A DNA stretch of 17,417 nt from an uncultured Nitrososphaeraceae archaeon (GCA_963825865.1 CAWGVG010000039.1:1-17417); one strand, 5' to 3'; counted from the first letter of the stretch, positions 1-16,658 are shown. Translations and numbers: made by a program. Notes: generated by a model not told the origin, from the sequence alone.

Positions 1-267
1 CATTACTTTATCAGTCGATAAAATTTTCGAGGCGTTCTTTTCGATGATGTTAACAGGTTTACTTGCACGTATTTCGTTAACAACATATCCACACAAGACT
101 ACAAGTGCCTCATTTGTATTAATTTTCAAATTCCTTGCAAGTTTTTCTTTAATTATTTCTACTGATGCATAGAATATTCCTTCATCAGATTTGTCCTTAT
201 AGTCAAAAATTTGAGTAAAGGGCGGGGTATCTCGTTCCCCTTTTACTATTACTTTAACAGAAATCAT
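1..267 (-). CDS. Divergent urease gamma subunit (UreA)-like protein, 3' end runs off the window
   Basis: Not in ORF track. Manual translation from ATG 267-265: MISVKVIVKGERDTPPFTQIFDYKDKSDEGIFYASVEIIKEKLARNLKINTNEALVVLCGYVVNEIRASKPVNIIEKNASKILSTDKVM, open to window edge. KLARNLKINTNEA...NEIRASKPV...KILSTDKVM parallels the UreA pattern (R.ARGLKLN.PEA...E.AR.GK.V...IL..DDVM). Start overlaps the upstream stop (ATGA). Confidence 0.75.
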   Translation of the reverse strand, partial: MISVKVIVKGERDTPPFTQIFDYKDKSDEGIFYASVEIIKEKLARNLKINTNEALVVLCGYVVNEIRASKPVNIIEKNASKILSTDKVM

Positions 268-1389
268 TTGCCTCTTCGTTTAGGAGGTTTAGCCTTGGGC
301 GCTTTTCCAAAATCATATGTGTGTCCTGTTCCATGATAAAATTTTGGTCTCACTGGATTGCCTTCGATTTGGCCTTTCTTTGTCAAAGCCAATCCTGCTA
401 AAAGCTCCACGATTAACCTGTTGGCTAGTCCTGATGTAATACCCCCATTATAGGAATTCTGATCGCTAACATCATAATTGGGCGCAACTTCTACGAGATC
501 AAATGCAAATTTATCTGGATCAAAAGAAGTAGACAATAATCGCATCAATCTCATCCCTTCCCTAGAAGTTAATCCATTTGGCTCAGGCTCACCTGTTCCA
601 GGAGCATATGCTGGATCAAAGGTATCTATGTCCCAGCTGATATAAACAGCATCAACATTATCATTAGCCCTATCTGCTGCCTCCTTTGCAATCTGATCTA
701 TTCCCATCTCTTCTACATCCAACATGGTAAACCATTGAAAGTCCTGATCTGCCATCCATTTGTAAATCTCTGGTCCAGGCCAATAGCCTCTAGGACCGAT
801 CAATGTATAATTCTTCCCTTTAAGGCATCCTAATTCCATAATTCTACGTATGTGTGCTCCATGATCATACTTGAAACCACATAATCCCTTGGGGAGCACA
901 GTCTGCATGAGTATCGATATGAATCATGCCAATATTTTTGTATTTTTTGGCAAATGCTCTAACATTTGCAAAAGTAATGGAATGGTCTCCGCCAAGCATG
1001 ACTGGAATTCCGTCAATATCTAATACTTCTTTTACCTTGTCGGTCATTCTCTTATGTGATTCAATTACATCACCAGGGGATACAATTACGTCACCATAAT
1101 CTGCTGCTTTAAATACTCCAAATGGATCCACACCTGTTTCGATGTTAAAGTGCTCATATGGTGGAGATGGCACGGTTGAGGCAGCACGAATAGCCCTTGG
1201 ACCATACCTGGCACCGGGACGGATAGTTGTACCAAAATCGAATGGTTCTCCAATAATAGCTACATCTGGTTTAACTTTATTTAATTCCTCGCGGTTTCTA
1301 AGCCAAGGTAATTTCAGAAATGTAGGAATTCCCACAAAAATTGGCTCGTCATTACCCTTGTATGAATCGCCATAAAATTCCATTCCCAT
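264..1389 (-). CDS. Ureohydrolase (agmatinase/arginase family), ~374 aa once one extra base at 891-894 is removed; frameshifted as read
   Basis: ORFs 865..1389 and 264..908 carry consecutive halves: GEPFDFG, RPGARYGPRAIR, GGDHSIT, HIDTHAD | DHG, SWDIDTFDPAYAPGTG, DLVEVAP. Sense strand reads GAC TGT GCT CCC [C] AAG GGA TTA; deleting one C joins them. Confidence 0.92.
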
Positions 1390-1415
1390 AATAATCTTTC
1401 ATTTATTACTACGGG

Positions 1416-1439
1416 GTATTTTTAAGCATTGCTAAGCAA
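1416..1439 (-). promoter_or_regulatory. Putative TATA box and adjacent short palindrome upstream of ureohydrolase
   Basis: Minus strand reads TTAAAAATA about 30 nt before ATG 1389; TTGCT-A-AGCAA inverted repeat at 1429-1439. Confidence 0.35.
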
Positions 1440-1917
1440 CTAACCACCTTTTAGATTTAGTTCTATAGTCAAATGTTTTCTTCAAGATCTGTCAAGTTCA
1501 ACGAGGATAAGATAACCAAGGGTAGTTAGCCACGATGAAGTTTTTAATTTTGCTATTACTTTATAATGTAATTACTCTGAGACATGCCACGACTAAAACT
1601 TCTTTCCAGTCAATTTCTAAATGTTTCACTATCATTGCACATGTTTTGTGGAATAAGAAGAAAAGATATGAGAGTCACTTAATTAAGAAGATCTTCTACT
1701 ACTTAGGTACCATTAGGACCTTTCATCAACCAAACAAAACTAACACGCAACTTACAATACTCGAGTATGTTGTTATATTAGATATCTTGATCTCACCATG
1801 TAACTTTTTTACCGCCTATCCATTATTATCTAATCCAAAAAATGGACTAGCTAAAGAAAATTTATAAGATGCATCTAGCCCTATAAATTTAAATATATTG
1901 GTAATAAACCCAAATTC

Positions 1918-2052
1918 ATGGATATTTCAGGTGTTATTGGGATGTTTGCTGCAATACTGGTCGCAAGCGGTATCCTCTTATATATCGGAACAATTGGTTT
2001 GAAAAGAGATAAAAAAGAAGATCGACTAAAAGATGACCGCCTTCAAAAATAA
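1918..2052 (+). CDS. Small single-pass membrane protein (44 aa), unknown function
   Basis: Below ORF-track cutoff. MDISGVIGMFAAILVASGILLYIGTIGLKRDKKEDRLKDDRLQK*: one hydrophobic helix then charged tail; TTTAAATA at 1888-1895 sits at TATA spacing. Confidence 0.65.
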   Translation: MDISGVIGMFAAILVASGILLYIGTIGLKRDKKEDRLKDDRLQK

Positions 2053-2241
2053 GAAAGATTTTTGCGTAGATACTCATAATGCCTATAAATCCACATCTTT
2101 GATTTGGAGGTAACTTAACCTCCAACCAAAGTATATTTATGTTCCTAAAATTTATTGTATTATATGATATTTGGCTGGCGATTAAAGAAACATGGCCCTA
2201 GTAATGAAAATTAAGTACAAGAAAACTACAAGAAAAGAGCT

Positions 2242-2676
2242 TTGGATGAGTGGGTAAAATATGGTGAAGACATGACAAATGCAAATAAACTCGATGAAGC
2301 CCTAAAATGTTTTGATAATGCTCTACAGATATATCCACAGAACGATTTTGCTTGGGGTGATAAAGGGTTGATTTTAGATAAGCAGGACAAGAATGAAGAA
2401 GCTTTGGCGGCTTTTTCAAAAGCGATTGTAATTAACCCAAACAATGCCATTACATGGCATAATAAAGGATTGACTTTAATTAGGTCAAAAAAGTTAAGAG
2501 AATCAATCGAATGTTTTGATAAGGCTATAGAAATTAGAGAAGATTATGCTAAAGCATGGTACAACAAGGGTAGAGCTTTATCTATGCTTGGTGAAATTGA
2601 TATATCTCAGAATTGTTTTAACAAAGCAAGAAAATTAGATCCGTTTCTATATACGAAATTAAAGAAAATGCGATAA
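2242..2676 (+). CDS. Tetratricopeptide repeat protein
   Basis: Repeating AW.NKG..L......EA...FDKA..I.P pattern, about 4 TPR units. Start uncertain (TTG 2242; in-frame ATG at 2164 is cut by TAA 2212-2214). Confidence 0.9.
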   Translation: MDEWVKYGEDMTNANKLDEALKCFDNALQIYPQNDFAWGDKGLILDKQDKNEEALAAFSKAIVINPNNAITWHNKGLTLIRSKKLRESIECFDKAIEIREDYAKAWYNKGRALSMLGEIDISQNCFNKARKLDPFLYTKLKKMR

Positions 2677-2771
2677 TAATTCATATTATCATGACTAATA
2701 TGCAACCGGATAAAAAGGCTATTTGTTTAAGCCAAACATTAAATAAAAATTGATGATCTAGCATAAAGTTC

Positions 2772-2954
2772 TTGTTCGGCAAAAAATATGGATGCGGAGG
2801 TTGTGGTACCACTTTCAAAGATAGAGAGGAACTCTTTAAACATGCTCAGGAAATGCATGATAAAAAAACTACCTATTTATGCATAACTTGCGATGAATCA
2901 TTTAGCACCGAATCGTCATTCAAATTGCACATGGCTAGAGATCATATAATATGA
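2772..2954 (+). CDS. Small protein with two C2H2-type zinc fingers
   Basis: Y-x-CxxC-xxx-F-x5-L-xx-H-x4-H (YGCGGCGTTFKDREELFKHAQEMH) and YLCITCDESFSTESSFKLHMARDH; TTAAATA at 2739-2745 upstream of the TTG start. Confidence 0.85.
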   Translation: MFGKKYGCGGCGTTFKDREELFKHAQEMHDKKTTYLCITCDESFSTESSFKLHMARDHII

Positions 2955-3088
2955 GCCACGAGAAACTAATTATTGCTTTTTTTGTATTTCTATTTTTTAA
3001 GTCAACCTGATGTTTTTGTTTAATATAATTTATAATTCTAAACAAAAGTTATTATGAAATTAAGGATAGATTCTGTGGGACAACTATC

Positions 3089-3096
3089 TTTATATA
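3089..3096 (+). promoter_or_regulatory. Putative TATA box of SSS-USP unit
   Basis: TTTATATA about 25 nt upstream of GTG 3121, fitting a leaderless archaeal transcript. Confidence 0.45.
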
Positions 3097-3120
3097 TTTA
3101 AATAAAGGTTTACTAATTTC

Positions 3121-4686
3121 GTGAGCGAAATTCCTATAAGTTATCCAATCGCAGTTTTAGCATTTGTGGCTGCAACTGCTGTTATAGGAGTTTTAGCAGT
3201 CAAATTTGTCAAGAAAAGTAGCAAGCGCTATATCGTAGCTGGCAAAAGTTTGCCATTGTTCTTCATCGGTACTATGTTGGTTTCTGAAGCAGTTGATGGT
3301 AACGCATCATTAGGAAATGTATCTTTAACATTTACCAGCGGGTTTTGGTCTGGTGCAGCGATTCCTCTTGGTTTAAGTATATGTCTAGTCTTAACAGGGG
3401 CCTTTTTTGGCAGAATATTTAACAGAATGAACATGATTACCCTTGCAGACTTTTACTTCAGACGATACGGAAACGTTAGTGAAATTATGTCAGGAACGAT
3501 AATGTCCATAAGCTTCATAGTCCTTGTGGCAGGCAACCTTGCTGCAAGCGGTTACATATTGTCTGTAGTATTAAGTATACCATTAATTTATGCAATGTTA
3601 ATTTCCACTGCAGTAGTCTTATTGTATACATATTTTGGCGGGCTATTTTCATGTGCTTATACGGATATATTCCATATATACCTAGCAGTAGTAGGATTCT
3701 GGGCAGGATTCATCTATTTCATTGGTCCTTGGTCACCGATTCCTGGTGGATTGGAGACAATAGTGGCAAATGTCCCTGGCAATTTCATGGACATGTCTGG
3801 CCTATTTAATCCTGGTAATGGTGCACTACTTAATTGGGCTACCATCTTGTCATTAGGATTAGGAGATATAGTGGCATTGGACTTTATGGAAAGGGTATTT
3901 GCAGCAGATGGTGGCCGAACGGCCGCAAAGAGTTGCTATATGGCAGCAGGCTTGACTTTGCTAATACTAATTCCCACAACAATGATTGGCATAATTGGGC
4001 ACACATTGGAACCTAATATCAGTGATGCATTTACGCTCTATCCCCTCATGGCGATAAAGCATGTGCCAGAAGTAATAGGTATCTTGATGCTCGTAAGCAC
4101 AGTAAGTTGTGGAATGTCTACTGCAAATGGTGGGACTTTGGCTATTGCTAGCGTTCTGTCTAGAAACATACTTCAACGCAACATACTAAGAAAACTAAAG
4201 GTAAAAGGACGAGGCTTAACTGATAGGCAGCTATTGATAGCAACAAGACTTTTGATAATCCCTATGTTCTTTACTGCTTTCTCACTTGGGGCGATTATTC
4301 CAAGGCCAGGCATTTATTTGGTACTTGCGTTTGACATTGTGCTTGCGGGCTGTCTTGTACCATTAATTTTAGGTACATATTGGAGGAAATCTACGGCAGC
4401 AGGTGCCGTAGCATCAATTGCTGTAGGCTCCGCATTAAGACTGGTATTATATTTTGTCATAACTACCGCGACACCAGGCAGTCCATATTTTGCCTACGCA
4501 GGATTAGATACAATGATCCCGCCATTAGTGTCTCTTGTAGTATTCGTATCTGTAAGCTTAGCAACACAAAAGAAAACTCCTCCTAGACACGATGTTATAT
4601 ACCTTGTTCCATCCGATGAGGATGTGGTTAGCGGAGCTGATGTGTCAGAATGGATAAAACCTATTGATGTAAGACAGGTTAGGTAA
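3121..4686 (+). CDS. Sodium:solute symporter (SLC5/SSS family), substrate unknown
   Basis: ~13 hydrophobic segments; Y.VAGKSLP, TLADFYFRRYG, LYTYFGGLFSCAYTD, ERVFAA, GMSTANG, LGTYWRKSTAAGA motifs typical of SSS transporters. Confidence 0.93.
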   Translation: MSEIPISYPIAVLAFVAATAVIGVLAVKFVKKSSKRYIVAGKSLPLFFIGTMLVSEAVDGNASLGNVSLTFTSGFWSGAAIPLGLSICLVLTGAFFGRIFNRMNMITLADFYFRRYGNVSEIMSGTIMSISFIVLVAGNLAASGYILSVVLSIPLIYAMLISTAVVLLYTYFGGLFSCAYTDIFHIYLAVVGFWAGFIYFIGPWSPIPGGLETIVANVPGNFMDMSGLFNPGNGALLNWATILSLGLGDIVALDFMERVFAADGGRTAAKSCYMAAGLTLLILIPTTMIGIIGHTLEPNISDAFTLYPLMAIKHVPEVIGILMLVSTVSCGMSTANGGTLAIASVLSRNILQRNILRKLKVKGRGLTDRQLLIATRLLIIPMFFTAFSLGAIIPRPGIYLVLAFDIVLAGCLVPLILGTYWRKSTAAGAVASIAVGSALRLVLYFVITTATPGSPYFAYAGLDTMIPPLVSLVVFVSVSLATQKKTPPRHDVIYLVPSDEDVVSGADVSEWIKPIDVRQVR

Positions 4687-4689
4687 AAG

Positions 4690-5208
4690 GTGACAAATAC
4701 GACAGAGGCCAAGCAAGTAATAAATGAAAAAAATGACCTGATACATGATCAGCAGCCAACAGTAAAAAAAATACTCGTGGCTATTGATAAATCAGGGTAT
4801 AAAGATAAAATTACAGTTTATGCAGTGATGTTAGCAAAAGTGTTAGGAGCAGATGTAACAGCCATACATGTTCTTGACAAATCTTCTTTGGGCTTTGTAG
4901 GGGGTCTATTGTCGTATTATAGAGGAGGCAAAATAGAAGTCTATGTAGATGCGTTAAAAAAACAAGCTGAAGAATTACTTGCTGAAGCTGAGGTTTTAGG
5001 AAAAAAAGAAGGTGTCAGGATGAATGTAGAAGTCTTGATGCACTCGCCTTCAATTGCAGAAGGAATAATTGATTATGCCAAAAGGAATGATATGGATCTT
5101 ATTGTGGTCGGCACCAAAGGTCTTACTGGAGTTGAAAAATTTCTCATAGGGAGTGTTGCAAGTAATGTCATTGCACATGCGCACTGTCCGGTAATGGCCA
5201 TTAGATGA
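4690..5208 (+). CDS. Universal stress protein (UspA family)
   Basis: KILVAIDKS N-terminal strand; DLIVVGTKGLTGVEKFLIGSVASNVIAHAHCPVMAIR ATP-binding USP signature; 3 nt after SSS stop. Confidence 0.95.
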   Translation: MTNTTEAKQVINEKNDLIHDQQPTVKKILVAIDKSGYKDKITVYAVMLAKVLGADVTAIHVLDKSSLGFVGGLLSYYRGGKIEVYVDALKKQAEELLAEAEVLGKKEGVRMNVEVLMHSPSIAEGIIDYAKRNDMDLIVVGTKGLTGVEKFLIGSVASNVIAHAHCPVMAIR

Positions 5209-5473
5209 CTATAATGAATTCTAATAATGTGATAGATTAATGTGTAGGTTACGTATCTTATGCTAACAATTGGTTGCGGTTTCCTTACTCATGATATTAT
5301 AAAGAGAGGATGATCGAGGATAACAGGTAATAGCTCTTCCTTAAATTGTCAGAAAAGAGATCATATTTAATCACTAAATAGATTATTAGTTAGATGTAAT
5401 CCTTATATTTTCAAATAAGGAAGTTTTTTTAGTTCAAGGTGATGAAAGTTAGTATAGATCTGTCTAACTACTT

Positions 5474-8847: not shown

Positions 8848-10557
8848 TTACTCCATGTCCATTCCGCCCATTCCGCCCATTCCGCCCATTCCGCCCATTC
8901 CGCCCATTCCGCCCATTCCGCCACCACCTCCTGGAGGCATAGGGGGCGTTTTTGATTTGCTTGAGGCGATTACATCGTCTATTCTCAAGAGCATACAAGC
9001 CGCTTCAGTAGCAGATTTGATAATTTGTTCCTTAACAAGGACCGGCTCTAGCACGTTCTGTTTGAACATATCGGCAACCACAGTGTTTCTGACGTCAATA
9101 CCCGTCCATTTCGCACCCTTGCTTTGTTTTGCTCTTAAATCTGTCATAGTATCTATTGGATCCATACCTGCGTTTTGTGCAAGAGCCAATGGAATCGAAT
9201 CAAGCGCATCTGCATATTTTAGAAGTGCTAACTGTGCTCGTCCTTCTAGGTTGCTTGACCATTGCCTTAGTTCATTTGCAATATATGCTTCGGGAGCACC
9301 GCCGCCTGCAACTATTTCAGGTTTTTCAAGGACATCCTTTGTTACCATTAAAGCATCATGTATAGAGCGATCAGCTTCATCGACTATTCTCTGTGATCCG
9401 CCTCTTATTAGAATTGTAACTGCTTTTGGATTCTTGCATCCTTCAATAAATACCCACTTGTCTGTCTCGACTTTGCGTTCTTCTACTAAATCAGCAGTGC
9501 CGAGGTCCTTATCTGTCATGTCATCAAGATTATTTACTATTCTGGCGCCGGTTGCCTTCGTTAGTTTGAACATATCACTCTCCTTTACACGTCTTACTGC
9601 GAGAACGCCTGCCTTTGCGAGATAATGTTGTGCGATATCGTCAATGCCTTTCTGACACAATACTACGTTAGCACCTGCATTCTTTATCTTGTCAACCATA
9701 GATTTGAGCATCTTGTTCTCTTCTTCAAGAAACATGTGCATCTGTTGTGGTTCATTAATACGTATTTCAGCGCTCATTTCGGTCTTTTCAATCTCAAGAG
9801 CAGAATTGACCAATGCGATCTTAGCATTTTCAACGGTCTTTGGCATACCTGCATGAACAACTTCCTTGTCAAGAACGATACCTTTGATCAATTTAGTATC
9901 ACCTATAGATCCACCTGCTTTCTTTTCGACCTTTATATTATCCAGATCTACTTTCAGGCCGTCAGCATCTTCGGCTTTTTCAGATACCTGTTTTGTCGCA
10001 TCAACAACAATTTGACTTAAAGTCGGGCTGTCGTCAGAAACTAGTTTTGAATCCATGCTGGTTCTAGCAATCTTAAGTAAACGCTCCTTATCATTTACTT
10101 CTACTTTAACTGCAATCTTTTGCAATAATTTCAGTGCCTGTTCAGATGCAGCTGTGTAACCATCTACAATTACCGACGGATGGACATCCTTGTTAATCAA
10201 CTCTTCAGCTTTTTCTATCAACGCACCTGCAAAAACTACTGAAGAGGTTGTTCCGTCACCGACTTCATTGTCTACAGACTTAGCAACCTCAACCATCATC
10301 TTCGCTGCTGGATGCTGAACGTCAATTTCTTTCAAAATTGTTGCACCGTCATTTGTAATTGTTACGTCTCCCAGAGTATCAACAAGCATCTTGTCCATGC
10401 CACGTGGACCTAGGCTGCTCTTCACGATCTCTGCGACCAGTTTAGCAGCAGTAATGTTGTTTCTCTGTGCCTCCTTGCCCTTGTTTTGTTTAGTTCCTTC
10501 CTTTAAAATTAAGACTGGCATTCCGCCAGCGGTAGTTTGAACTGATGCCATTTGCAT
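8848..10557 (-). CDS. thsB: Thermosome subunit (group II chaperonin)
   Basis: [38 protein letters not shown] motifs and GGM tail. Alpha/beta assignment is tentative; start may be 10551. Confidence 0.97.
8859..8922. repeat. Perfect 9-bp tandem repeat (CCATTCCGC) x ~7 encoding (GGM)7
   Basis: Read directly; encodes the thermosome C-terminal Gly-Gly-Met tail. Confidence 0.95.
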
Positions 10558-11297: not shown

Positions 11298-11371
11298 GGG
11301 GTCGTTGTCTAGCTTGGTATGATGCCAGCCTCGGGCGCTGGAGATCGTCGGTTCAAATCCGACCGGCCCCA
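11298..11371 (+). tRNA. tRNA-Pro(CGG), no intron, CCA not encoded
   Basis: Acceptor GGGGTCG/CGGCCCC + A discriminator; anticodon arm CCAGC-CTCGGGC-GCTGG; T arm GTCGG-TTCAAAT-CCGAC. Confidence 0.96.
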
Positions 11372-12001: not shown

Positions 12002-12663
12002 TCACTTTCTACTTTAACCAATGGGAAGACTCGCTCCATTTATCTTGCGCATTTAAATCCATTAACAAAGGCCCACGAGAATGTCACTCTCTTTTCTAGC
12101 AAAGGATTACAATGTGTATGTTTTCCCTGTAAGATTTTTTAAAAGTGGTAAAGAGATCAACACAAGAAGCTTCCCGTTTTCTTATAAAATTAGAAAAGCA
12201 ATGGTAGAATCAGTTTTTAGTAACAATAATAACATCACAATCTTGCCACATTACACAATCTTTTCTCCATTCATAAAATATTTACCACCTCTAATCTCTC
12301 CATATTCTTGGATGTTACGAAACCAAATAGTCAGAAGTGTTAGAGAAGAAAAATTTATCTCTTACACTGGTGATAGAACAGAGAGAATTGTATTAAAGTC
12401 ATACAAGCTTCATCCAATTAGAGCTAAACGACTACGAAATCTCTTCGCATGCTGTGAAAGAATTGCTTTATCATCAGGCTATTGAAGGAAGAGGAGGACT
12501 AGAAGAAGGTAGAGTAGAAAAAGCCTCATGGCACGATAAAGTGCCGGAAAAAGTTATCGATTTGATTAAGGATAACTGGAGAATTGTAGAAGAGTTTGCA
12601 AAATCTCCCGATTTGACTTTGAGAATAATGGGAATGAAATTTCCCAAAGATGGTTTTATTTAG
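12002..12663 (+). CDS. HIGH-superfamily nucleotidyltransferase (cytidylyltransferase/NMNAT-like); two +1 frameshifts as read, start codon unresolved
   Basis: Three frames join: KTRSIYLAHLNPLTKAHENV | (extra base 12086-12087) SFLAKDYNVYVFPV...SFPFSYKIRKAMV...RAKRL | (extra C 12435) EISSHAVKELLY...WHDKVPEKV...GMKFPKDGFI*. Motifs parallel (T/H)xGH, PF...R..M, ISS and W...VP..V of this fold. Start coordinate approximate. Confidence 0.75.
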
Positions 12664-15467: not shown

Positions 15468-16658
15468 TTAACCAATAGTTTCGCAGACAGGATTTGCCTT
15501 CATTAAGATCAAGTCCATGATTTGTTTATTCTTGGATATAACCTTAGTGAAATCGTTCTTAGTACATGCTATAACTATCATAGTTTTATCACTAGGATAA
15601 AGGTCAAAACTTGGGCCTTGTTGTAGTTCAACATCTCCAATGTAATCCTTTAGCTTTGTTTCAAGTGAAGATAGCAACTCTATTTTATCGCCTCTCATTT
15701 CATTAGGATCCAATGTCCATGCAATTGCCACTTTTGTTCTGCTTGCCTTCAAGTCTCGTTTCCTTAACATATCCCGGATTTTGTCTATCAGATGTTTAAT
15801 ATAGCCTTCTATACCCTTGATGGTTCCATTAACAAGATACATCAAAGGACCTGCTCCACTAAGCGAAGAGCCGATAGCTCTGAGATCATACAAGCCATTT
15901 GCTACATCGTCTATGTAAACATCGCTGAACGTCCCGCGCATCAATTCGCTGCTTACACCAATATCCTGAACACGTTTGCAGATTTCTAGTACACTTGCCA
16001 TGCCAGTATAATTTCCTAGGATTTTGATAGCATGTACAAATTCTGCAGATATAATATCGACAAAATTAAGTTTACGACGGACATCGGGATCATAGAGCAT
16101 TTTTGACATCTGTTCATCCTGTTTTGACTTTAAAGAGCCTACTAGAATTTCAGAGATAGAGACATCATCAGTGCTACTAATTGGCATATAATAATAGAAA
16201 ATATCTTTGCCAACTGACAAACCTGTCATGTGCTCTATTAATGCAATATTTTCATTATTGCCTCCAATGCCAGTAGGCAGAGTATAAATTACAGAGGCAT
16301 CTCTCTTCAAAGATCTAATTGCGTCTCGAAACTTGGATGTAACATCACTCTTTACATCTTGTCCAACCTTCCTAATCCTTGGTGCAAAAAAGACATACGA
16401 GGCATCATTAATTGCGACATCAATAGGCTCAAGAGCAAGCAATGGCTCGTCTTCTATTAGGGAACTAACGTTAGGATACGTCCGTGCAATATCCGGCTTT
16501 AGTCTTATGGCCATTCGAGCAGATTCATCAATCAATGAAACCTTTGAACCTTTGACTGCGATAGCGGATGCAATGCGATAACCTTCTGTGCTTAATCCAT
16601 AGACAGCTGCATCTAAAGTTGTTGTTGATGGTAAAGAGGATGATGATCCAGCACTCAA
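15468..16658 (-). CDS. Degenerate nucleotide-sugar dehydrogenase-like protein
   Basis: Overall layout of UDP-glucose/GDP-mannose dehydrogenases (N-terminal AAVYGLSTEG Rossmann-like, GLSVGKDIF, central SAE helix, C-terminal KVAI...PNEMR) but no GGxC catalytic motif. Confidence 0.65.
   Translation of the reverse strand: MSAGSSSSLPSTTTLDAAVYGLSTEGYRIASAIAVKGSKVSLIDESARMAIRLKPDIARTYPNVSSLIEDEPLLALEPIDVAINDASYVFFAPRIRKVGQDVKSDVTSKFRDAIRSLKRDASVIYTLPTGIGGNNENIALIEHMTGLSVGKDIFYYYMPISSTDDVSISEILVGSLKSKQDEQMSKMLYDPDVRRKLNFVDIISAEFVHAIKILGNYTGMASVLEICKRVQDIGVSSELMRGTFSDVYIDDVANGLYDLRAIGSSLSGAGPLMYLVNGTIKGIEGYIKHLIDKIRDMLRKRDLKASRTKVAIAWTLDPNEMRGDKIELLSSLETKLKDYIGDVELQQGPSFDLYPSDKTMIVIACTKNDFTKVISKNKQIMDLILMKANPVCETIG

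Follow-up and report, generated by a model that had tools for sequence, protein, structure and literature searches.

A ureohydrolase and a sodium:solute symporter accompany urease in ammonia-oxidising archaea and suggest an unrecognised organic nitrogen source

Ammonia-oxidising archaea (AOA) are among the commonest nitrifiers of soils and oceans, and ammonia, urea and, for a single case, cyanate are the substrates accepted for them. Comammox Nitrospira were shown in 2024 to grow on guanidine, in a paper that describes AOA as lacking guanidine-degradation genes (PMC11410670; here and below, citations refer to the accessible parts of each paper). Palatinszky et al. tested five strains of ammonia-oxidising bacteria together with N. 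inopinata, and six AOA names for which the accessible text was searched do not occur in it. The operons of known nickel-dependent ureohydrolases also include genes for nickel chaperones and for a transporter of nickel (PMC11399263). In the literature searched, as far as its text was accessible, we found no description of a guanidino-compound route or a guanidino hydrolase in AOA. Here we describe a locus at positions 1-5208 of a contig from an uncultured Nitrososphaeraceae archaeon (GCA_963825865.1, CAWGVG010000039.1:1-17417; the whole stretch of 17,417 bases is referred to as the window). It encodes a ureohydrolase of the arginase family with a protein resembling the urease gamma subunit (UreA-like) and, on the opposite strand, a sodium:solute symporter (SSS) with a universal stress protein (USP). 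In the genomes sampled, this module is confined to those with urease. This suggests that AOA use an organic nitrogen source that has gone unrecognised.

Joint occurrence of transporter and hydrolase

Among 121 genomes of the order, orthologs of the SSS (E ≤ 1e-20) and of the hydrolase (E ≤ 1e-40) were found in the identical 17 genomes and in no others; both thresholds lie in broad score intervals that contain no matches. The pair is present in 15 of the 75 genomes that are at least 90% complete, and in 16 of the 17 carriers both genes lie on one contig, at most 8 kb apart. A preliminary description of the window, made from its sequence, had staked its reading of the locus on such co-occurrence and co-location in relatives, and this expectation is borne out. 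Inside genera the module is patchy (two of six genomes in g2, two of three in g30, one of two in g40), which argues for repeated joint gain or loss of the pair. In the window, the genes are arranged as follows.

1-267, minus strand: UreA-like protein (urease gamma paralog), first 89 codons, cut by the contig end; Pfam PF00547, 26.6 bits (cut-off 23.9)
264-1389, minus strand: ureohydrolase, arginase family, 'GEPEP' subfamily; PF00491, in two frames
865-1389, minus strand: N-terminal half of the ureohydrolase; Pfam Arginase PF00491, 119.7 bits (cut-off 22)
264-908, minus strand: C-terminal half of the ureohydrolase; Pfam Arginase PF00491, 135.6 bits (cut-off 22)
886-892, minus strand: single-base insertion site, an extra G in a coding-strand G run, which splits the ureohydrolase; from a codon alignment with 12 orthologs
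1390-2241, no strand: intergenic region from which the hydrolase operon and the TPR, zinc-finger, SSS and USP genes diverge; no Rfam match
2242-2676, plus strand: TPR protein; Pfam TPR_1, 106.3 bits
2772-2954, plus strand: C2H2 zinc-finger protein of 60 amino acids; Pfam zf-C2H2, 39.5 bits
3121-4686, plus strand: SSS transporter, the proposed importer; Pfam SSF PF00474, 85.4 bits (cut-off 22.8)
4690-5208, plus strand: USP, beginning 4 nt past the SSS stop; Pfam Usp PF00582, 105.5 bits (cut-off 24)

The layout agrees with the preliminary description where it coupled a ureohydrolase to a urease-gamma-like gene, since the TGA of the former and the ATG of the latter overlap by 4 nt (ATGA), and where it placed an SSS/USP pair about 1.7 kb away on the opposite strand (1.73 kb from hydrolase start to SSS start). 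Three small genes had been placed between the two halves. The TPR and C2H2 zinc-finger genes among them are conserved in relatives; the third, an open reading frame (ORF) at 1535-1867, matches no Pfam or NCBIfam family and has no counterpart by tblastn or blastp in the loci of 13 relatives, and is therefore probably not a gene. The TPR proteins of relatives have 168-176 amino acids, 24-32 more than that of the window, and related contigs show single-base indels at window positions 2207 and 2237, just upstream of its start; the 5' end of this gene is therefore probably longer and damaged by assembly errors. As the source genome holds many USP paralogs, the link of the USP to the module is weaker.

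We compared the hydrolase locus of 24 relatives from three families, some of them represented by short contigs. The number of loci with each gene was as follows.

SSS: 22 of 24; both misses are short contigs, one of which ends in the first 30 SSS residues
TPR protein: 21 of 24
UreA-like gene directly downstream of the hydrolase: 20 of 24, with the 4-nt stop/start overlap in 14 of these 20
Cpn60/TCP-1 chaperonin paralog: 18 of 24
NicO-like permease: 13 of 24; two reach the PF03824 cut-off and one weakly matches only DsbD_2
USP beside the SSS: 12 of 24
C2H2 zinc finger: 11 of 24
ureC: 11 of 24

Because the arrangement recurs in 24 relatives, it is not due to chance. The module reaches beyond the window to a nickel permease and a dedicated chaperonin paralog, and in relatives it often adjoins the urease operon. 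We regard it as rather likely that the window holds half of an accessory module conserved among urease-positive archaea, with the remainder on contig C58 of the same assembly. A module closely resembling that of family f1 is also present in genome G117 (locus L044) of family f13, with a hydrolase 90% and an SSS 81% identical to those of the window and with the TPR and zinc-finger genes between them; in other f13 genomes the hydrolase is 78% and the SSS about 52% identical. The G117 module may have been transferred as a whole, or the genome may be taxonomically odd.

The AOA literature has read this transporter differently. It is called an 'SSS/DUR3 urea transporter' (PMC11131427, PMC5797428, PMC12625717) and is named dur3 in PMC10753782 and PMC12625717; Abby et al. 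2018 show it in urease loci under the label 'SSS-type urea transporter' (PMC5797428), and in the accessible texts its clustering with 'agmatinase' is remarked only by Bei et al. 2024 (PMC11131427). On this annotation, the locus would be a regulon for the supply of urea, in which the SSS imports urea, an agmatinase-like hydrolase uses internal arginine or agmatine, and the two are linked only via urease. The alpha subunit of urease is encoded in 30 of the 121 genomes, including all 17 carriers, and 9-11 of the 24 relatives have urease genes within the locus; both counts favour this explanation. However, a urea importer is expected to track urease, so the other 13 urease-positive genomes, which have neither hydrolase nor SSS, are left unexplained, while the SSS matches the hydrolase 17 for 17. 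In four genomes (G060, G111, G088, G105) urease lies more than 400 kb away, and there the SSS stays with the hydrolase, the UreA-like gene and the chaperonin paralog (in two of the four also with NicO) and not with urease. The candidate agmatinase is a separate paralog on contig C27, and 'DUR3' has been reported from nine metagenome-assembled genomes (MAGs) of UBA8639 without urease (PMC12625717). The transporter itself matches the Pfam SSF model over its full length (model positions 1-406) and reaches no NCBIfam equivalog cut-off (panF 68 vs 328, PutP 50 vs 515). Its database names are generic, none mentioning urea, and the closest solved structures are choline transporters (E 1e-16). On balance, we consider a regulon for urea supply, though still the strongest competing reading, a fairly unlikely explanation of the locus.

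A second SSS gene of the source genome (C48:33938-35455) was considered as a paralog serving urease and rejected; it has no BLASTP similarity to the SSS of the window (E 0.93). Its distribution is unrelated as well, for transporters of this second type occur in 12 of the 121 genomes (one of them, G126, unpublished), mostly in families f7 and f10, where no urease was found.

The ureohydrolase and its putative partners

Both halves of the window's hydrolase lie above the PF00491 gathering score, and intact orthologs of 367-417 amino acids in relatives are 78-94% identical to it. The six ligands of the binuclear metal centre align to H182, D207, H209, D211, D299 and D301 of 9FEK (residue numbers as in PMC11410670). 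They do not vary among 22 orthologs; they correspond to H136, D159, H161, D163, D253 and D255 in the hydrolase of G016 and are present across the two window halves. Mean column identity is 80% across the three families, which is very strong conservation. The best match among sequences of solved structures is guanidinobutyrase 3NIO (E 4e-49), with the guanidinases 9FEK (1.7e-48) and 7ESR (2.5e-48) close by, followed by proclavaminate amidinohydrolase and guanidinopropionase and, further down, by agmatinases. The MefH/DmgH chains 8SNF and 8RYI are weaker matches (E 1e-32 to 1e-31).

Databases label the AOA hydrolase 'agmatinase', and Bei et al. 2024 name it SpeB (PMC11131427). It reaches no NCBIfam equivalog cut-off, and an intact ortholog stays below the agmatinase models (TIGR01230, 150.6 vs 174.3; PRK02190, 198.4 vs 302). 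The paralog on C27 passes TIGR01230 (174.7 vs 174.3), and paralogs of its type are present in 12 of the 13 genomes sampled from the family (52-68% identity) compared with five of 13 for the window enzyme (88-92%). The preliminary description would have been undermined by a housekeeping agmatinase at this locus; a near-universal paralog that reaches the cut-off, beside a patchily distributed window enzyme, speaks in its favour. Guanidinases use T97 and W305 (Synechocystis) or T105 and W313 (N. inopinata) for guanidine specificity (PMC11410670). In the AOA hydrolase the Thr is kept and the Trp is an invariant Glu, at a position where guanidinobutyrase has Thr. Proteins with this Glu form a clade with support values of 96/97, comprising AOA (monophyletic, 98/99), haloarchaeal (52-54% identity) and Aquificaceae proteins and some of unknown origin. 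Judged by its sequence, the hydrolase is neither the housekeeping agmatinase nor a GdmH-type guanidinase, and its relationships suggest an uncharacterised ureohydrolase subfamily common to Halobacteria and an Aquificaceae MAG.

Homologs outside the order with 50-62% identity carry the same Glu motif. In 44 of 55 loci fetched with the haloarchaeal alignment, a set which includes short contigs and two distant bacterial matches, an SSS homolog (34-42% identity) lies at most 8 kb from the hydrolase homolog, nearly all of these loci being from Halobacteria. Urease genes are present in seven of the 55 loci, and urease was found elsewhere in the genome in all five haloarchaeal genomes tested. A conserved gene for a protein of about 345 amino acids without NCBIfam match usually lies between SSS and hydrolase in the haloarchaeal loci (L056-L108, e.g. 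L060:4936-9110); judged by eye, the N-terminus of this protein may resemble AbrB-type regulators. In the Aquificaceae MAG (L101:7198-13826), the hydrolase ortholog (about 55% identity) is located inside the urease cluster, between ureA and an SsuA-family ABC transporter and ahead of ureG and ureD. The binding protein of this ABC transporter passes the SsuA-family cut-off, its second-best model being 'putative urea ABC transporter' (urea/guanidine carboxylase operons). The ureA beside the Aquificaceae hydrolase was considered as a second, UreA-like paralog and dismissed, as it is the only ureA of that genome; ureC is found 12 kb away.

Intact UreA-like orthologs have 125-144 amino acids and score 36.9-39.4 bits on PF00547 (cut-off 23.9). 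An AlphaFold2 model of the G016 ortholog (predicted local distance difference test score 87.3) has as its top Foldseek matches the urease gamma chains 2FVH, 4FUR and 2KAU, with probability 1.00 and target-normalised template modelling scores of 0.78-0.80. The protein adds an N-terminal beta hairpin and a variable C-terminal tail to the gamma fold, and its few invariant residues lie in stretches that align to the Pfam model. Although public databases call such proteins 'urease gamma subunit' (346 matches), the urease equivalog PRK13241 is far from reached (25.7 vs 123, for the truncated window copy), and the gene is found with that of a ureohydrolase and without ureB or ureC. By sequence, the UreA-like protein is distinct from the canonical UreA, which the source genome encodes on contig C14 (145 bits). 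A complex prediction for the G016 hydrolase and UreA-like pair, run with their own alignments, scored 0.00 in both runs, with controls not folded, and is evidence neither way.

The family and fold of the UreA-like protein would also be consistent with the view that it, NicO and the chaperonin are an alternative subunit and maturation factors of urease, so that hydrolase and SSS are mere neighbours of a urease island. The gene order in family f4 (hydrolase, UreA-like, NicO-like, ureA, ureB, ureC) fits this view, and Abby et al. 2018 assign the chaperonin to urease (PMC5797428). Yet in G060 and G111, where urease is more than 400 kb off, the UreA-like gene and NicO remain beside the hydrolase, and the 4-nt overlap between hydrolase and UreA-like gene recurs in 14 of 20 loci. 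Moreover, the source genome has its canonical ureA in the urease operon and a different chaperonin-like fragment (C14:159838-160698) beside ureC, which is only about 29% identical to the chaperonin on C58 (C58:16056-17758); the latter is 65-69% identical to the hydrolase-neighbour paralog of relatives. Only one urease-locus Hsp60 homolog is described in the literature. We hold a urease island with incidental neighbours to be quite improbable.

In family f4, the hydrolases (L039, L051, L052) are extended at the C-terminus by a His-rich stretch of about 45 residues. Tails of this type are known from nickel-handling proteins. The hydrolase probably uses nickel: it is linked to NicO, the f4 orthologs have their His-rich tails, and the GdmH, MefH and DmgH operons provide a precedent (PMC11399263).

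Condition of the locus in the source genome

The window is the entire contig C39 of an assembly (G000) of 62 contigs and 4.98 Mb with an estimated completeness of 81.8%. It had been attributed to a probable ammonia oxidiser, and this is correct, because the genome encodes an archaeal amoA (383 bits) and, on C14, a canonical urease cluster including ureABC. C58 and C39 adjoin each other: read in reverse complement, the C58 tail (about 17760-18160) continues the UreA-like frame with no residue missing, and beyond it C58 carries the chaperonin gene in convergent orientation.

Two lesions affect the operon in this genome, a frameshift in the hydrolase caused by one extra G (GG to GGG) at about 889, across which 12 orthologs share the same 21 codons, and an in-frame TAA in the UreA-like continuation, four codons from the C58 end, where orthologs have Glu. 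The extra G is the break behind the repair to which the preliminary description alluded. Both lesions could mean that the operon is a decaying pseudogene and the module inactive in this organism, and the urease cluster on C14 is likewise broken in ureC (C14:157999-159775), ureG and ureD. However, such breaks are spread over the genome and fit an error-prone assembly: 15 of 48 sampled genes align to the ORFs of relatives in two or three frames, nine of them unrelated to urea, and the C58 chaperonin and C27:84887-87546 are further examples. Three soil runs, two of DNA and one of RNA (X1, X3, X15), yielded contigs with about 99% identity to the window, and each of these is one base shorter at 889. 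Apart from this site, the hydrolase has no further lesion and matches intact orthologs at 90-94% identity, and the TAA sits at a contig end. The frameshift is thus most likely an assembly error, although a private mutation may be the source of the extra base, and decay of the operon appears very unlikely. The high number of frameshifts may also lower the completeness estimate of the assembly.

RNA contigs from the soil metatranscriptome X15 span the UreA-like gene, the hydrolase and the SSS, with 1417-3009 uncovered, and are a weak sign of transcription of the module. One X15 contig over 455-1375 maps as two pieces in swapped order, with a joint that goes back 921; this probably stems from the way in which a circularised or repeated contig was assembled. 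Contigs of run X2 cover only 4780-5300 and are uninformative on the module.

Outside 1-5208, the window contains unrelated housekeeping genes, among them a canonical thermosome gene (8848-10557). An Rfam scan of the whole window (E ≤ 1) returned a tRNA at 11298-11371 as its sole match and no riboswitch near the module. Two sizeable ORFs, 12081-12485 (134 amino acids) and 15468-16658 (396 amino acids), have no Pfam match.

Proposed pathway and comparison with known systems

As the simplest account of these observations, we consider it reasonably likely that the module imports a cationic guanidino compound and hydrolyses it to urea, which then feeds urease. The SSS would import a small, probably cationic guanidino compound, for which guanidine, an alkylguanidine or agmatine are candidates; the cationic nature of the cargo is indicated by the Glu near the metal site and by the kinship of the SSS to choline transporters. 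No signal peptide is apparent at the N-terminus of the hydrolase, judged by eye, and a cytoplasmic enzyme would therefore need an importer. In the cytoplasm, the ureohydrolase of the Glu-marked subfamily, probably using nickel, would hydrolyse the imported compound to urea, and canonical urease would convert this to ammonia for ammonia monooxygenase. The translationally coupled UreA-like protein may be an accessory or structural partner of the hydrolase, the NicO-type nickel permease and the dedicated group II chaperonin paralog may serve its maturation, and the TPR, zinc-finger and USP proteins may act as regulatory or assembly accessories. The preliminary description had likewise read the locus as one for import of a guanidino compound and its conversion to urea. 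Of this, the co-occurrence, the co-location and the non-housekeeping nature of the enzyme stand; the chemistry, namely the substrate and the direction and cargo of the SSS, rests on context.

Several observations weigh against the proposed pathway. The substrate class, the direction of transport, nickel use and the role of the UreA-like protein, and with them the chemistry of the module, are inferred from genomic context. The SSS is published as a urea transporter, and with ureC in the same fetched locus in 11 of the 24 relatives it could serve urease directly. NicO and the chaperonin could also serve urease, as Abby et al. 2018 proposed for the chaperonin (PMC5797428). The Trp that gives guanidinases their specificity for guanidine is replaced by Glu, and two surveys, in their accessible parts, report AOA as lacking guanidine-degradation genes (PMC11410670, PMC12625717). 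The UreA-like gene was not found beside the hydrolase in four of the 24 relatives, nor in the haloarchaeal loci, and the protein is therefore non-essential to the hydrolase. In the source genome, the hydrolase is frameshifted and the UreA-like frame contains a stop. Finally, related genomes are non-independent samples, and the counts are given without a statistic.

If the pathway exists, 17 of the 121 genomes sampled from the order, about one in seven, would gain a route from a guanidino compound via urea to ammonia, and a transporter routinely taken in surveys as a sign of urea uptake would have to be read differently. A more far-reaching version, which we regard as unlikely, is that AOA and Halobacteria own an unrecognised nickel-dependent guanidine or alkylguanidine hydrolase system, in which 'SSS/DUR3' is a guanidinium-type importer, the UreA-like protein a new subunit and the chaperonin paralog the assembly factor of the complex. 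In that case, the UreA-like protein might cap the three-fold axis of the hydrolase or tether the hydrolase to urease for direct transfer of urea, and guanidino compounds could be an energy source for a large proportion of the AOA in soils and oceans.

Compared with GdmH and the guanidinase of N. inopinata with their permeases, known from comammox Nitrospira and cyanobacteria, the locus is alike in that a ureohydrolase lies beside a secondary-active importer in a urease-bearing nitrifier. The equivalents of T105, H222 and E344 (Thr, His, Glu) are kept in the AOA hydrolase, and both systems are associated with nickel, through chaperones and a transporter in the known operons and through NicO here. 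In contrast, W313/W305 is Glu in the AOA enzyme and identity to the guanidinases is only about 35-40%. The importers there belong to the APC or ABC type and here to the SSS, a guanidine riboswitch was not found in the window, and the AOA locus has, in addition, a candidate UreA-like partner and a chaperonin paralog. In the accessible parts of published surveys, the AOA hydrolase is not counted as a guanidinase.

The guanidinobutyrase GbuA, the guanidinopropionase GpuA and proclavaminate amidinohydrolase (3NIO, 3NIP, 1GQ6) share the metal-ligand motifs and the arginase fold family with the AOA hydrolase, GbuA being its best match among solved structures. GbuA has Thr near the metal site where the AOA enzyme has Glu. 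Unlike this group, the AOA hydrolase carries additional loops and ends in a conserved tail of about 60 amino acids, and its context is urease and nickel, not amino-acid catabolism. With the agmatinase SpeB (TIGR01230) it shares the superfamily and its database name. It differs in its score below the cut-off of that model and in its patchy distribution (17 of 121 genomes), as opposed to the C27 type with 12 of 13 genomes in the family.

In the metformin and dimethylguanidine hydrolases MefH/DmgH, a ureohydrolase needs a second, non-catalytic subunit, and nickel genes lie in the operon (PMC11399263). The second subunit there is a degenerate ureohydrolase, whereas the candidate partner here has a urease-gamma fold, and hypA and hypB are not in the AOA locus. 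The UreA-like protein shares Pfam family and fold with the urease gamma subunit UreA. It differs from UreA in lying far below the equivalog cut-off, in its additional N-terminal hairpin and C-terminal tail, and in being encoded with a ureohydrolase. The pairing of a ureohydrolase with a urease-gamma fold is unprecedented.

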